From the sequence record NC_041869.1: 64,000 bases of DNA. One strand, given 5' to 3'. Shown here piece after piece: positions 10,946 through 14,932 of the stretch (within the stretch, counting starts at the first letter, position 1; each line of letters opens with the position of its first letter). Under the pieces are notes generated by a model. The model saw only the letters and a program-made list of their open reading frames with translations. It searched no databases and was not told the DNA's origin. Source of the stretch: Escherichia phage APECc02. The translations under genes were made by a program, and so were the position numbers.

Positions 10946-13369
10946 ATGAGTATGTGGTCTTTCGATTTTGAGTCATCCGGTTTGCTGGAAGACCCAGATC
11001 TTTATTATCACTGCGGTCTGTTTAAAGAGCTGAATAAGAACCGTTTTATGCTGTTCCTTCCTCTAAATGACCGCACACACTACTCCGAGGAGGATATAGA
11101 AAAGGCTAAGAACTTCATTCTGGCAAAGAAAACTCTTTATAAAGATTTTGAAGTTCGCATAGCAGATTTTTCGGAGTTGGAAGGTTGGCTTACAGGCAAT
11201 TCTGACTGGTCACCAACAGCTTTGAACTGCCATAACTGCTACAGTTATGACTTTATGCTAATGGAAAGATTATCCGGTATTCATTTTGATATGTTCCGTG
11301 ATCCTAAATGCATGGGGACTATCAACGACCACCAGGTTAATCTGTTTGATACGTTGGCTATGAGCCGAATATTGTGGCCTGATCGCCCTTTACCAAAAGG
11401 TTGTCCGGACGCTGTATTCAACCCGGTTACTAAGAAAATGCAACCTGTTGGTCCTCACGGCCTTATGGCATGGGGCTACGCCCTTGGTAACCAGAAAGTT
11501 CAAATTGATGACTGGCGCGATCTTCCGCTGTGGAAATATGTGGATCGTGTGTTCGAGGACGTTATCATCCAGGAGTTGCTCTGGAAAGAGCTGGTAGCGG
11601 AATCAAAAGGTGTATTCTACGGCAAATCTGACATGCAGAACTTTATGTACGATCCAGCCAAAGAGAAGCCGAAAGGGTTCAAGAAAATCACCTGGAAGAA
11701 CGCATTACGCCGAGGCATGCTGCAGCACTTCCTGATGGAGCTGCAGGCCCGTCAGGGTGTGTATTTCGACATAGATGGGGCTATTGCTTTACGTGACCGT
11801 TGCGATGCGTGGATGAAAGAGATCGCTGATCGTGTTGAACCTCAACTTCCTTTAAAAGAGTTGTCAATGTCTCAGCGGCCCAAGTTCCCTGAAAAGCCGT
11901 TTAACCAAGACGGGACAATCTCCAATAATGGTTGGAAATGGTTAAAAGATAAGCTTGGCTATCCTGTAGACATGAGCGCTTTAGAATTCAAAGCCCCGCC
12001 TAAGCGAGCATTTACCTCCACAGGAGATGTCAGCAAGATGGGGATAAAATGGTGCGAAGAGATGGGCTGCAAAGACCCCGACAAGATGGCTGATTTCTTG
12101 AGAGGTTATATTAAGGGCACCTCCACACCACAACCTTTACCTAAAGAGCTGATGGATCAGGCAATAAGTGATCTGCAGCAGAAGCGAATGCCTGACTGCA
12201 AGATACCTATGAAAATCAGCAATCAGGACGACATTAAGCGATACCTGATCAGTGCTGGTTGGCTTCCGACAATGTGGAGAACTAAGGATGTAACTAAGGA
12301 CAGCAAGAAGAAAGCTCTACCTGATGCAGATGTTGATGCACGAGTATATGCATACATGGACGAGCTTTTAGAGTCAGAGTATTGTGACCTAATTATCAAC
12401 TTCTGGAACAAAACTGATGCTAAGTTTCAGACAACAGTGCACAAGTTCCGAAGCTTTCCTAACTCCGAAAGGATTAAAAAGGAAGTGTTCGGGAAAATAC
12501 GCAGAAAAGCCAGGGCACTTATTACTTCTCCGCAACTGAAAGATACGTTTGGACACCTATGTCCGAATCTTGAAAAATTGAACGGAGAGATGGCTAAAGA
12601 TATCGTCTTGTGGTTATCATTGCGAAACCGCAGATCGGTCCTTGATCCAATCAAGGAGGATAAGGTTGATACTGGTCTTCTTAATCACCCACGTTTGAAG
12701 ATTGACCATAAGCTTCCTGCTAAAAGCTCTGGATTAACAAACACTTCCCGACAGAAACACAGTATTTGTGCAAACATGCCTAAACCATCTCCTAAAGTGG
12801 TTATGGGTAAAGAGATGCGTAGCTTGTGGGGTGTTCCTCCTGGATACTTTGAGATCGGTATTGACGGGTCCAACTTGGAGCAGCTTATCGGGGCTTGGGG
12901 TGCCTTTGAGTTCGACAACGGCTTGTACTATGATGTTGTAAGTAACGGGGACGCACACCAAAACAATGCTGAGGCATATACAAAAGTAGCAGGCAGAGAG
13001 GTGTCTCGTAACGACGGTAAACCTATCACGTATGGGGTTATGTACGGGGCACAAAAAGATAAAGTTGCAGATATGCTGGATATCTCCCCAGAGTTGGGGC
13101 AAAGGGTGATCGATGCACTTTGGGATGCCAACCCCGGTCTTAAGGGGCGCAAAGAGGATCTGGAGAAATTCTGGGAAGCAACAGGTAAGAAGTTTATCTA
13201 CTCTTTTGATGGTCATGCTATCTGGACCCGATCTAAACACTCTTTACTTAATGCATACCAACAAAATGGTGGTGCATCGCTGTGTGACTTAGTTGGGATA
13301 CTCATGCACCACCAAATGGTGAAGCGTGGGTGGTACGATGAAGGTGTCCGTCGTATTATCTATTACCAT
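10946..13369 (+). CDS. DNA polymerase family A, exon 1 (3'-5' exonuclease and polymerase motifs A and B)
   Basis: Exo I FDFESSG at N-terminus, motif A GIDGSNLEQ, motif B KPITYGVMYGAQ; RBS AAGGAG; track ORF runs 6 nt further to an in-frame TAA that I place inside the intron. Confidence 0.8.
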
Positions 13370-14211
13370 AAATAACATTGTGGCTTCGTGCAGTGATGCA
13401 CGTCGAAAACCTCTTTAATTGACGGGAAGGCTAAGTTGACTTTTACACCTGAACATGGTAAAAGCTCAATATGCTAATCCGCAGCGAAGACTAAAGGGGT
13501 GTAGTTAAAATGGCTAGATCAGCTGATTATCACGGGTATACCGTGTTTGATGATGGAACAATACCTTTATCGAAACGTGATCATACAACAATGTTTTGTT
13601 TTGATAATGGTAGAGGTTACCTTTGCGTAACCATGCTCATCGAGGGGAAGCAGTGCACAAAAGGTGTCCACCACTTGGTTGCTGAATGCTTTGTACCGAA
13701 CCCTGATCCTGAAAAGCTCACATGGGTGAACCATAAGGATGGAAATAAGTACAACAATGCACACTGGAACCTGGAATGGACTACCCCTGGTGGAAATATC
13801 AAACACGCCTACGATAATGAACTCAGAGTAAGGCCAGTCGGTGAGTATAATGCCAACGCTGTGCTGACCGAGGATGAGGTAACGGAGATTTGCGAACTGT
13901 TGCAGAGTGGTCTACGACAATGCGAGATTAGGGATCTTGGGTATCCTTATGAGACGGTCAGAGCCATAAAGCAAAGAAGACAGTGGAAACATATCTCTAA
14001 AAACTACACCTGGTAGTAACGTTCAGAGACTATCGAAAGCATAGCTCCAACATAGTTTGGTGTGAAGAAGCGAGTAGAGTAGGCCAGCAAGTGCGGTCGA
14101 AATGAGAGGTGCCTTGGTAACAAGGTAATGAGATAGTCCGATCCATACAGGAAACCGTATGGCTGTGCACGTAATGGTGCGGGGTAGCTTAACGACCTAC
14201 CTGAACTATTG
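13370..14211 (+). mobile_element. group I self-splicing intron with embedded HNH homing endonuclease ORF
   Basis: P1 pairing CCAU(13366-13369)/GUGG(13380-13383) with U.G at 5' splice site; conserved P-like AATTGACGGGAAGG (13417-13430), Q AATCCGCAGC (13476-13485), R GTTCAGAGACTA (14021-14032), S AGATAGTCCG (14131-14140); terminal G at 14211. Confidence 0.7.
13510..14016 (+). CDS. HNH homing endonuclease (intron-encoded)
   Basis: motifs VHHLVAECF and VNHKDGNKYNNAHWNLEW; lies between intron Q and R elements. Confidence 0.75.
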   Translation: MARSADYHGYTVFDDGTIPLSKRDHTTMFCFDNGRGYLCVTMLIEGKQCTKGVHHLVAECFVPNPDPEKLTWVNHKDGNKYNNAHWNLEWTTPGGNIKHAYDNELRVRPVGEYNANAVLTEDEVTEICELLQSGLRQCEIRDLGYPYETVRAIKQRRQWKHISKNYTW

Positions 14212-14565
14212 GATGAGTACCAACTTCAGGTCCCTGACACGCCTAAGTATAAGACTGTGTACACCTTCGACACAATTGAAGAGCTGGAAGCATTTAAGGC
14301 AGAGCAGGAAGCCAAACTTCATGTGTTCGACGGTCATAAGTACAAAAAGGCACGCAAGGATGAAGACGGAAACGAAGTGGTTGACAGAGACGGAAACACG
14401 GTGTACGATCCTATCCTGAACGATGACGGAAAGCTTGAACTTATCTGGAGCCCTGTGGGTGAAATGGTGGTGCATTGCTTCTGGCAAGCTTCTAAAATGA
14501 TGGGCGTCCCGTTCCAGATCACAGGTGAATACCTGTGTGGTCGTAATTGGGGTGATTGTCACTAA
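14212..14565 (+). CDS. DNA polymerase family A, exon 2 (motif C and C-terminus)
   Basis: predicted splice junction gives ...IIYYH|DEYQLQV, restoring the HDE motif C; C-terminus GRNWGDCH matches the PolA terminal NW...H; track ORF begins at in-frame TTG 14209. Confidence 0.7.
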   Translation, partial: DEYQLQVPDTPKYKTVYTFDTIEELEAFKAEQEAKLHVFDGHKYKKARKDEDGNEVVDRDGNTVYDPILNDDGKLELIWSPVGEMVVHCFWQASKMMGVPFQITGEYLCGRNWGDCH

Positions 14566-14614
14566 TGTAAACTATCAACACATGGAAGTGTTGTTGAGCA
14601 AAGAGGAGACTTTT

Positions 14615-14932
14615 ATGGTAGTAGAACCAACAAAAACATTTACATCCATGACTATCCCTGTTATTATGCAGGTGGAGTGTGTTCAGGTATCTCAAGTGTG
14701 GCCAGGCACTAAAATCCCAACAGGGCCTGATTTCTTTCAGGTTGGGAAAGTGTACAATGTCTGGAAGGCACCAGATTGTCACCCTTTCATTAAAGAGAAG
14801 GCACCAAATTGCTACCCTTTCATCAAAGATGACCGTGGAATGCTGTGGTATCTTGGAAATGATTTGACACTGCACCTTGGGAATGCTATTATTGCAGTAT
14901 TCAGACTTAACAAGAAGGAGACTGATCAATGA
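14615..14932 (+). CDS. hypothetical protein
   Basis: ATG with AGAGGAG RBS just after polymerase stop; track ORF 14525..14932 trimmed to this start. Confidence 0.5.
   Translation: MVVEPTKTFTSMTIPVIMQVECVQVSQVWPGTKIPTGPDFFQVGKVYNVWKAPDCHPFIKEKAPNCYPFIKDDRGMLWYLGNDLTLHLGNAIIAVFRLNKKETDQ

Follow-up and report, generated by a model that had tools for sequence, protein, structure and literature searches.

Why the DNA polymerase gene of Escherichia phage APECc02 breaks off within a catalytic motif, and resumes 842 nt further on, is the question raised by this locus, which lies in the 64,000-nt stretch of sequence record NC_041869.1 analysed here (the window). In the ORF list the 5' part of the gene is an ORF at 10946-13375 whose 3' end reads CAT AAA TAA in the window sequence, the stop codon ending 6 nt after U13369, as a sequence-only reading of this DNA had noted. 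Motif A of its product (GIDGSNLE) aligns to GIDASGLE of T7 DNA polymerase. Joining 13369 to 14212 keeps the frame and gives a protein of 808 + 117 = 925 residues that reads ...IIYYH|DEYQLQV... (...IIYYHDEYQLQVPDTPK across the predicted His808-Asp809 junction) and terminates with ...GRNWGDCH, where T7 DNA polymerase (T7 gene 5, translated for comparison) terminates with ...GPNWAICH. The alignment of the two enzymes (mawvHDEiqv vs iiyyHDEyql) places the junction in motif C, between His808 and Asp809. The in-frame join, the HDE motif, the NWGDCH end, the length of 925 residues and the split exactly at motif C, all proposed in the sequence-only reading, are thereby reproduced. The product of exon 2 by itself has no significant match in the PDB. 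The predicted joined product is a T7-like family-A DNA polymerase. The family-A DNA polymerase gene is essential to rV5-like phages. Without splicing, a single Lys is appended after His808 and translation ends at the stop codon 13373-13375, giving 809 aa. We consider it very probable that the intervening sequence represents a mobile, self-splicing intron of group I with IA2-type architecture, residing in the polymerase gene of an E. coli myovirus of the rV5-like group (Vequintavirus) (Table 1).

Table 1. Coordinates of the polymerase exons, the intron and its structural elements in the window
Feature	Position	Strand	Details
DNA polymerase exon 1	10946..13369	+	808 codons, C-terminal IIYYH; Pfam DNA_pol_A match
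Group I intron	13370..14211	+	842 nt; first base A13370, last omega-G14211; RF00028, intron-less alleles, covariation
P1 hairpin	13366..13383	+	exon CCAU + intron AA with internal guide UUGUGG; L1 13372-13377
P2	13387..13402	+	6 bp, GUGA tetraloop; compensatory changes in 6/6 pairs; in MFE fold
P3 5' strand ACCUCUU	13409..13415	+	partner 14104-14110; double changes in 3 pairs
J3/4, P4, P5, P5a/b	13417..13483	+	P4-P5 recovered in fold of ORF-less homologue
P6 / P6a / P6b 5' strands	13484..13504	+	alignment, MFE fold
HNH homing endonuclease gene (putative)	13510..14016	+	168 aa, looped out of P6a, bracketed by P6b
P6b / P6a / P6 3' strands	14004..14022	+	CUACACC...UAGU...GU; covariation alignment, MFE fold
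R element	14023..14032	+	P7 5' strand GACUA 14028-14032; 2 pairs with double changes
P7.1, GUA-containing linker, P7.2	14033..14098	+	P7.1 14033-14073, P7.2 14082-14098
P3 3' strand + P8	14104..14126	+	P3 14104-14110; P8 14111-14126, GUAA loop
S element	14130..14139	+	P7 3' strand UAGUC 14134-14138
P9, P9.1, P9.2	14143..14201	+	P9 14143-14162 (GAAA tetraloop), P9.1 14167-14180, P9.2 14183-14201
DNA polymerase exon 2	14212..14565	+	117 codons + stop, DEYQLQV...NWGDCH

Relatives of APECc02 exist in which the gene is uninterrupted. Exactly 842 nt are absent from the Vequintavirus alleles of naswa, V18, ECP26, ECP2309 and Murica, which read IIYYH|DEYQLQV (...IIYYHDEYQLQV...) within a 925-aa protein, encoded in naswa by 2778 nt; the comparison with intron-less homologues that had been suggested as a check thus yields a continuous ORF with the predicted junction in all five. 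In Murica this appears to reflect a precise loss of the intron. Across 117 relatives the Vequintavirus site is polymorphic, carrying 842, 329, 276 or 0 nt, with the 842-nt form present in about a quarter of them and the intron absent from roughly half of a 60-record sample. Altogether, forms that have the same boundaries and no ORF range from 254 to 343 nt. An intein, or any other in-frame insertion removed at the level of the protein, has no place among the plausible explanations: a genuine intein does occur elsewhere in the same polymerase gene of WM, YP-6 and 241Ecol014PP, but the APECc02 insert runs into a stop two codons in, its 842 nt are not divisible by 3 and a ribozyme lies inside it.

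The suggestion that this ribozyme is a group I intron had been accompanied by a proposal to search covariance models, the absence of any hit being taken to speak against it. A hit is found, as RF00028 matches the window copy over its full length (model 1-253) with 41.1 bits, at E=7.4e-9 when 1 kb is searched and at E=4.7e-7 when the search covers all 64 kb of the window. Since this score falls below the curated gathering score of 50, a scan of the whole window at the default gathering threshold reports nothing and a permissive scan is needed to detect the intron; it is the threshold, not the absence of an intron, that leaves the default scan empty. The low score is likely due to the insertion of ~510 nt in P6. 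The ORF-less alleles with identical boundaries exceed the cut-off, with 72.5 bits for the 329-nt and 64.7 bits for the 276-nt form.

The structure can be followed helix by helix. The intron starts with AAAUAA and ends with ...UAUUG, and its length of 842 nt and terminal G14211 are as first read. P1 consists of 6 bp (C13366-C-A-U-A-A13371 with U13378-U-G-U-G-G13383) rather than the 4 bp (CCAU/GUGG) of the sequence-only reading, of which the pairing and the U.G wobble hold; this wobble, U13369.G13380, denotes the 5' splice site, does not vary among 15 site-homologous introns and is present in the minimum free energy (MFE) fold. The P, Q, R and S core elements that had been recognised early on could be placed at 13417-13426, 13476-13483, 14023-14032 and 14130-14139, P and Q being the strands of P4, and the 5' strand of P7 is pseudoknotted with 14134-14138. 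P5 bears a CUAAG...UAUG motif resembling the 11-nt receptor, and 13436-13469 form the P5a/b hairpin. The Rfam model stops at 14161, the last 50 nt of the intron being lineage-specific extensions, and in the window copy an A.C mismatch takes the place of one P9 pair. A P10 of 4 bp is possible between G14212-A-U-G14215 and C13376-A-U-U13379 and is retained by the majority of the 15 sequences; positions +1 to +3 of exon 2 are GAC, not GAU, in four of the five intron-less alleles. Introns of subgroup IA are distinguished by P7.1 and P7.2 between P7 and the P3 3' strand, with a G-U-A linker (PMC3428280). Downstream of P7.1 the window reads ...GUAGAGUA..., followed by P7.2, which covaries, and the 276-nt form reads UUCC-GAAA-GGAA GUA GACC...GGUC in this region. 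The intron has the features of IA2 introns and is here called IA2-type, an assignment based on its architecture.

Evolutionary maintenance of these helices is seen in an alignment of the core, covering 67 pairs, of 15 introns that all reside at the H|DE site, in phages of Escherichia, Salmonella, Klebsiella, Aeromonas, Pseudaeromonas, Pseudomonas and Vibrio. The alignment was anchor-segmented and registered by hand; plain MAFFT alignment of the 842-, 329- and 276-nt forms put the 5' half against the ORF. In the hand-registered alignment 97.9% of the cells are paired, compared with 31-39% in slid-partner controls, and changes on both sides occur in 36 of the 67 pairs; the P3/P7 pseudoknot is among the helices covered. 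For covariation the alignment scores 0.542, where slid partners give 0.055-0.107, and none of 500 shuffles reached this value; the register of P7.2 and P9.1 was picked by pairing, which biases these two helices towards the structure. Unconstrained MFE folding of the window copy yields P1, P2, P6b, P8, P9, P9.1 and P9.2, and P4-P6 are recovered by MFE folding of the ORF-less form, whose folding z-score is a modest -2.06. The full core, the covariation, the ORF-less forms above the Rfam threshold and the intron-less alleles agree in bearing out the sequence-only reading's group I intron.

It is conceivable, if highly improbable, that nothing is ever excised and that a free-standing HNH gene with non-coding flanks simply separates two genes, whose 809-aa and 117-aa polypeptides assemble after translation. 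Such an arrangement has a precedent in the split NrdA gene of phage Aeh1, with mobE, where the polypeptides also assemble after translation. Exon 1 possesses its own stop codon, a TTG-start ORF from 14209 spans exon 2, two separate CDS named 'DNA polymerase' are given in many GenBank records, and phage HNH insertions without splicing exist (discussed in PMC7344957). However, a split gene is contradicted by the conservation of the complete ribozyme core, in which compensatory changes are seen among phages of seven host genera, and by the absence of a ribosome-binding site before exon 2, the stretch 5' of the TTG (CCUACCUGAACUAUUG) containing no Shine-Dalgarno-like sequence. It would also part the His from the catalytic Asp-Glu, and free-standing HNH insertions should not leave ORF-less versions at identical boundaries. 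Moreover, a homologue is spliced in vivo in Pectobacterium phage CB7 (Certrevirus, Vequintavirinae), as RT-PCR and cDNA sequencing revealed (PMC7344957). The CB7 intron, which scores 46.6 bits with RF00028, shares with that of the window its insertion site (RGWYDEGVRRIIYYH|DEYQLEV) and its P1 and internal guide (CAU|AAGUAACAUUGUGGC), has a similar 3' end and likewise contains an HNH ORF (CB7_50). It differs in genus and host, in its length of 687 nt, in its shorter HNH ORF and in the presence of a second polymerase intron upstream. By analogy, we infer that splicing also takes place in APECc02.

If so, the polymerase pre-mRNA would fold into a ribozyme comprising P1-P10 and the P7.1/P7.2 and P9.1/P9.2 extensions. 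A free guanosine held in P7 would attack the bond 3' of U13369, offered as the U.G wobble in P1, and the 3'-OH of exon 1 would then attack the bond after omega-G14211, placed by P10 (GAUG with CAUU). Ligation would join His808 to Asp809, restoring motif C and the 925-aa polymerase, whereas unspliced RNA would yield an 809-aa protein devoid of the catalytic Asp-Glu and the C-terminal His.

What the remainder of the intron encodes also bears on how it came to be there. The ORF at 13510-14016 sits between Q and R, in P6a, in keeping with the Q-R loop named in the sequence-only reading. The P6b strand GGUGUAG (13498-13504) spans the purine-rich stretch immediately 5' of the HNH start codon, and the 3' strands of P6b, P6a and P6 share nucleotides with the final codons and the stop codon of the ORF. 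The 168-aa protein, with its HNH at the N-terminus and a helix-turn-helix-like region at the C-terminus, matches PHROG 59 (E=8e-38), a family that includes the HNH endonucleases of Bastillevirinae polymerase introns. Its only significant solved-structure match is I-HmuI (PDB 1U3E, E=2.8e-5), over the catalytic region (vHhLva...vnHKDGNk.NN..NL.W). A dN/dS of 0.11 (vs FV3) argues for a functional protein, and the entire ORF aligns gap-free with its Av-05 homologue, the DNA of the Av-05 intron being only 71% identical. By homology the ORF encodes an I-HmuI-like HNH enzyme, and it is under purifying selection. A promoter scan of the stretch from the 5' splice site to the HNH start codon found no convincing promoter, and we therefore do not propose that the ORF is separately transcribed.

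From the sequence of this protein and the distribution of the intron we infer endonuclease activity, its target and homing. When relatives without the intron infect the same cell, the enzyme is presumed to nick or cut their polymerase alleles close to the insertion site, upon which recombinational repair would copy the intron and some of the exon flank into these alleles. With the intron of phage I29 the identity is 100%, compared with 98.7% for a wider region of 1801 nt that takes in the exon flanks, and about 30 records match the intron at 95-99.8%. It is accompanied by an exon-2 synonymous haplotype, GAT GAG TAC CAA, in place of which four of the five intron-less alleles have GAC GAA TAT CAG. 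A patchy distribution together with a linked exon-2 haplotype is the pattern that recent homing would be expected to leave. We regard it as unlikely, though less so than a split gene, that the intron is splicing-competent and merely inherited vertically in this lineage, its endonuclease being inactive or serving another role. The match to Pfam HNH_3 (E=6e-4, 19.8 bits) is indeed under the 24.8-bit cut-off of that family, and the persistence of ORF-less forms in many relatives indicates that the ribozyme is independent of the ORF. Yet the low dN/dS, the gap-free alignment to the Av-05 protein, the alignment of the catalytic HNH region with I-HmuI, the identity to I29 exceeding that of its flanks, and the patchy distribution with its linked haplotype all speak for an intron that homes.

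Further states of this site were encountered among relatives. In 241Ecol014PP and K470 the intron is ORF-less and a related free-standing HNH gene lies directly downstream of the polymerase, and in PVP-SE1 the same ribozyme carries an unrelated LAGLIDADG gene within P7.1. It is quite possible, if somewhat short of probable, that the H|DE introns of the Vequintavirinae and of Aeromonas, Pseudomonas and Vibrio myoviruses represent a single lineage of ribozymes that spreads horizontally and is seen at each step on its way to mobility: ORF-less, ORF-less with a downstream HNH gene, with HNH in P6a, with LAGLIDADG in P7.1, and lost. The intron of ECO104 4-5-2 (L010) was considered as a candidate and rejected; it shares ~80 nt of P9-like sequence and is a different intron, at another polymerase site and with a C-terminal-HNH ORF.

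Similar introns are found in more distant phages. In the T7-like Escherichia phage HZP2 an intron occupies the identical point, separating the His codon of motif C from the Asp codon (MAWVH|DEIQV); its core is likewise IA2-type and includes P7.1-GUA-P7.2, and its P6a holds an HNH ORF. However, the HZP2 intron is 601 nt long, lacks P2 and P9.1/P9.2 and has no similarity to that of the window beyond the generic core, and its 131-aa HNH protein shows no detectable kinship with the window HNH (BLASTP E=1.6). According to PMC3428280, self-splicing of the PhiI/W31 introns found in T7-like phages (Bonocora & Shub 2004) occurs both in vitro and in vivo, and the H|DE insertion point corresponds to E. 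coli Pol I site 881. The APECc02 intron would work like those of the PhiI/W31 lineage, but belongs to a separate lineage. The introns of SPO1, SP82 and Bastille (I-HmuI, I-HmuII, I-BasI) and of Pf-WMP3 (I-PfoP3I) are also IA2 introns in family-A polymerase genes and encode nicking HNH enzymes, yet they are inserted at Pol I position 674, in the fingers, and not at motif C (PMC3428280), and their hosts are Gram-positive bacteria or cyanobacteria instead of E. coli.

As such, the element is ordinary and already known, since near-identical public phage genomes annotate the spliced gene, and HNH-bearing group I introns in phage polymerases are a kind known since 1990-2004. I29, rV5_ev146, HeinrichReichert/Bas58 and FV3 harbour the same element, with equal boundaries, ORF and exon context and no substantive difference. 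In the records of HeinrichReichert and RudolfGeigy the polymerase CDS is a join of two pieces whose spans fit the removal of 842 or 276 nt, and the BASEL-collection GenBank records that annotate a join are 98.7% identical over the region; the intron boundaries were assigned there through comparative genomics (PMC8594841). The rV5 genome paper gives the polymerase as 775 aa and mentions introns only in the terminase (PMC3606486), and the literature searched yielded no structural or experimental work devoted to this intron. Most other records wrongly show the element as two polymerase genes plus an HNH gene, and in the majority of public rV5-like genomes the polymerase appears as two or three separate genes, together with an overlapping ORF that is spurious. 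Where the polymerase serves as a marker in pipelines or phylogenies, 13369 should be joined to 14212.

Our understanding of how such elements work is unchanged by this finding, which adds one more case of selfish elements lodged in a replication enzyme at its most conserved codons. At least two distinct lineages of intron and endonuclease have settled at the His|Asp boundary, in T7-like podoviruses and rV5-like myoviruses, which supports the established view that homing endonucleases target invariant catalytic motifs. The natural allele series in a tractable E. coli phage collection may provide an experimental system for homing and for the capture of endonuclease genes: since many of the allele forms occur among the BASEL phages, which form plaques and infect E. 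coli K-12, one could directly test in which order endonuclease genes are captured, as well as 'collaborative homing' and co-conversion.

The 842-nt insert within the gene for DNA polymerase in this rV5-like E. coli myovirus (genus Vequintavirus) is very probably a group I intron of IA2 type that carries an HNH homing-endonuclease gene and is seated at the His/Asp codon boundary of motif C. The surrounding region (12900-14700) is 98.7% identical to that of Escherichia phages HeinrichReichert and I29. The numerical statements of the sequence-only reading are all correct: since the upstream ORF ends CAT AAA TAA, its stop finishes 6 nt past U13369, the insert has the stated length, and a join of 13369 with 14212 keeps the frame, giving 925 aa (808 + 117) with ...IIYYH/DEYQLQV... 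at the junction.

Features of the interrupted polymerase gene (window coordinates)
Feature	Coordinates	Strand	Remarks
Polymerase exon-1 ORF	10946-13375	+	N-terminal 808 residues, T7-like family-A DNA polymerase
Insert, very probably a group I intron	13370-14211		842 nt
HNH ORF	13510-14016	+	168 aa
86-aa ORF	14159-14419	+	Overlaps intron 3' end and exon 2; probably spurious; FV3 counterpart FV3_00207 annotated hypothetical protein
Exon 2 as annotated in many records	14209-14565	+	Separate 'DNA polymerase' or hypothetical gene; TTG start within the intron's last 3 nt
Polymerase exon-2 ORF	14212-14565	+	117 codons; C-terminus ...GRNWGDCH

Alignment with T7 DNA polymerase structures is continuous over the junction (iiyyHDEyql in the window, mawvHDEiqv in T7), and pairs the upstream motif A (GIDGSNLE with GIDASGLE); the C-terminus of T7 polymerase (...GPNWAICH) is also like that of the window, upholding both the placement in motif C and the PolA-typical NWGDCH terminus that had been claimed. 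In family-A polymerases the Asp of HDE is one of two catalytic carboxylates, and since it is encoded in exon 2, an unspliced product would be devoid of an essential catalytic residue. That the two halves are instead translated separately is argued against by the lack of a Shine-Dalgarno-like sequence ahead of exon 2.

Natural alleles in relatives pin down the boundaries. Sorting 117 related phage genomes that match the region by insert length revealed the 842-nt insert in about a quarter, a 329-nt form in a few and a 276-nt form in many, including the prototype rV5/V5, while about half of a 60-record sample have no insert. In phage naswa, whose allele has no intron, the sequence runs uninterrupted as RGWYDEGVRRIIYYHDEYQLQVPDTPKYKT, with the junction exactly at 13369/14212 and an unbroken gene of 2778 nt (925 aa), and four more intron-less alleles have the identical junction, so that the proposed comparison with intron-less polymerases supports the intron. 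Because the bases flanking the junctions differ (T/A on the 5' side, G/G on the 3' side), placement of the insert is unambiguous. Sixteen records labelled 'Campylobacter phage' (MG0656xx), with Campylobacter jejuni given as host, also match this region of an E. coli rV5-like phage, at 94-97% identity among the matches listed, and hold the same 842-, 276- or 0-nt alleles; their host attribution looks doubtful.

A default Rfam scan of the window reported no hit. A permissive scan returned a full-length match to the group I intron model RF00028 at 13360-14161 (41.1 bits; E=7.4e-9 local, 4.7e-7 for the whole window), which lies below the gathering score of 50 and contains a ~510-nt insertion in P6; the covariance-model search suggested for 13370-14211 thus recovers the family, albeit under threshold. 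ORF-less introns with the same boundaries score 72.5 bits (329 nt, JLBYU08) and 64.7 bits (276 nt, RudolfGeigy and 241Ecol014PP). Across the whole 64-kb window the permissive scan yielded, at E<=0.001, neither a further group I intron nor another RNA family, indicating that terminase introns of the rV5 type are absent here or that the terminase gene lies outside the window; ARAGORN found no tRNA genes in the window.

Covariation supports the fold. We aligned the cores of 15 introns that interrupt polymerase genes at this same His/Asp boundary of motif C in phages of Escherichia, Salmonella, Klebsiella, Aeromonas, Pseudaeromonas, Pseudomonas and Vibrio, with ORF-bearing loops excised and conserved anchors setting the register, and scored 67 pairs (P1, P2, P3, P4, P5, P6, P6a, the P7 pseudoknot, P7.2, P8, P9, P9.1, P9.2 and two P10 pairs). 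In this hand-registered alignment 97.9% of cells hold standard pairs, versus 31-39% after the 3' partners were shifted by 1-3 columns; both sides change in 36 of the 67 pairs, and the covariation score of 0.542 (0.055-0.107 with shifted partners) was reached by none of 500 shuffles. The registers of P7.2 and P9.1 were picked by pairing, which biases both helices towards the structure; P2, P3, P4 and P7, at fixed offsets from conserved anchors, each show compensatory changes. When the window intron was folded whole by unconstrained energy minimisation, P1, P2, P6b, P8, P9, P9.1 and P9.2 were recovered; a fold of the 329-nt form contained P4-P6, at a modest z-score of -2.06. The U.G wobble predicted at the 5' splice site is present (U13369.G13380), in a P1 of 6 bp (C13366-A13371 with U13378-G13383) rather than the 4 bp first proposed. 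GNRA loops cap P2, P8 and P9, and P5 contains a CUAAG...UAUG motif that we take to resemble the 11-nt tetraloop receptor. P7 and the 3' strand of P3 are separated by P7.1 and P7.2, which a GUA-containing linker joins, an arrangement that is a criterion of subgroup IA2 (PMC3428280). These features are as expected for phage IA2 introns.

The only significant solved-structure match of the HNH ORF, in the catalytic region, is I-HmuI (1U3E, E=2.8e-5), a nicking homing endonuclease encoded by the polymerase intron of SPO1. The ORF matches PHROG 59 (HNH endonuclease, E=8e-38), which also holds HNH enzymes of Bastillevirinae polymerase introns (PMC11878797), and its match to Pfam HNH_3 is under the cut-off. 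A dN/dS of ~0.11 against FV3 (15.5 synonymous and 7.5 non-synonymous differences), together with a gap-free full-length alignment to the homologue of phage Av-05, whose intron is only 71% identical in DNA, suggests that the endonuclease is probably functional. The ORF forms a loop in P6a, closed by a 7-bp helix (13498-13504 with 14004-14010) that covers the purine-rich stretch before the AUG and includes the last ORF codons, and that, on analogy with other introns of phages, may thereby limit translation; no convincing promoter was found upstream of the ORF within the intron.

Both this element and introns of its kind were known before. BASEL-collection records annotate the spliced polymerase as a two-piece join, whose spans of 3620 and 3054 nt minus 842 and 276 nt leave 2778 nt each, with intron boundaries set by comparative genomics (PMC8594841). 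The rV5 genome paper, which gives a 775-aa polymerase and introns in the terminase only (PMC3606486), missed the polymerase intron. In the related Vequintavirinae phage CB7, a polymerase intron with the HNH gene CB7_50, identical to the window's in site and P1, reportedly undergoes splicing in vivo (PMC7344957). In the T7-like phages PhiI and W31, Pol I site 881 is occupied by IA2 introns that self-splice and have an HNH gene in P6a (PMC3428280), and T7-like HZP2 has a 601-nt intron at the identical codon boundary (MAWVH/DEIQV), but the HNH protein of HZP2 shows no relationship to that of the window (E=1.6) and its ribozyme is without P2 and P9.1/P9.2: the T7-like introns are a separate lineage at the same site. 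Conversely, the closest characterised enzymes belong to the introns of SPO1, Bastille and Pf-WMP3, which occupy a different polymerase site, distinct from Pol I 881 (PMC3428280).

We infer that the intron splices and homes in this phage. Mobility is suggested by its 100% identity to that of I29, against 98.7% for the wider 1801-nt region with exon flanks. Compared with naswa, exon 1 is identical (300/300), but the first 33 nt of exon 2 contain eight synonymous differences. At four synonymous sites of exon 2 (+3, +6, +9, +12) in 13 alleles, GAT GAG TAC CAA accompanies the 842- or 276-nt insert in 7/7 cases and GAC GAA TAT CAG is found in four of five intron-less alleles; the +3 T completes P10, and JLBYU08 keeps that T alone. 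This distribution is compatible with co-conversion accompanying homing, with immunity of the intron-less haplotype's target site, or with both together. The exception is Murica, intron-less with GAT GAG TAC CAA at +1 to +12, a candidate for precise loss of the intron or else for the uncut ancestral target.

Other relatives vary in what the site holds. Salmonella phage PVP-SE1 has a homologous intron (L014, 401-1319) at the H/DE site with a LAGLIDADG ORF in P7.1, between R and S, and no HNH gene in P6a; in this related ribozyme the captured endonuclease gene belongs to another family and sits in another loop. Directly 3' of the polymerase gene, 241Ecol014PP (L008:1335-1982) and Vibrio phage K470 (L019:1868-2515), both with an ORF-less intron, have a free-standing HNH gene, and so does Av-05 (L009:3762-4400), though its intron carries an HNH ORF. 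The 241Ecol014PP protein is 33% identical to the window's enzyme (E=1e-15) with the same HNH and HTH layout, and a free-standing gene beside an ORF-less intron resembles 'collaborative homing', which Bonocora, Zeng and Shub reportedly proposed in 2009 as a step towards mobile introns. The ORF-less 329-nt intron of JLBYU08 (L001, 1971-2299) has a window-type core from P3 on, a P2 like that of the 276-nt form and a CAUCC-GAGA-GGAUG hairpin at the exact position of the window's ORF, suggesting recombination between intron lineages and modular ORF gain or loss. Further upstream in the gene, Av-05 (L009, 1584-2299) and CB7 (L025, 20865-21535) have an extra insertion with no counterpart in the window, and the one in CB7 is an additional group I intron (47 bits). 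VB-EcoM-WM, YP-6 and 241Ecol014PP (L006-L008) have a 969-nt in-frame insertion in exon 1 that bears the hallmarks of an intein, with C-YSGDTQILTE at its start, the LAGLIDADG-like LLIAIHDDGN inside and ...VCGN at its end, before a Cys. The homologous position in the window, which has no intein, is ~13005 (...GDAH/QNN...); the same polymerase gene can thus hold both an intein-like insertion and an intron. Together these phages provide a natural series of alleles (none; ORF-less; ORF-less with a related free-standing HNH gene adjacent; HNH in P6a; LAGLIDADG in P7.1), many of them in culturable E. coli phages, in which the acquisition of endonuclease genes by introns could be tested.
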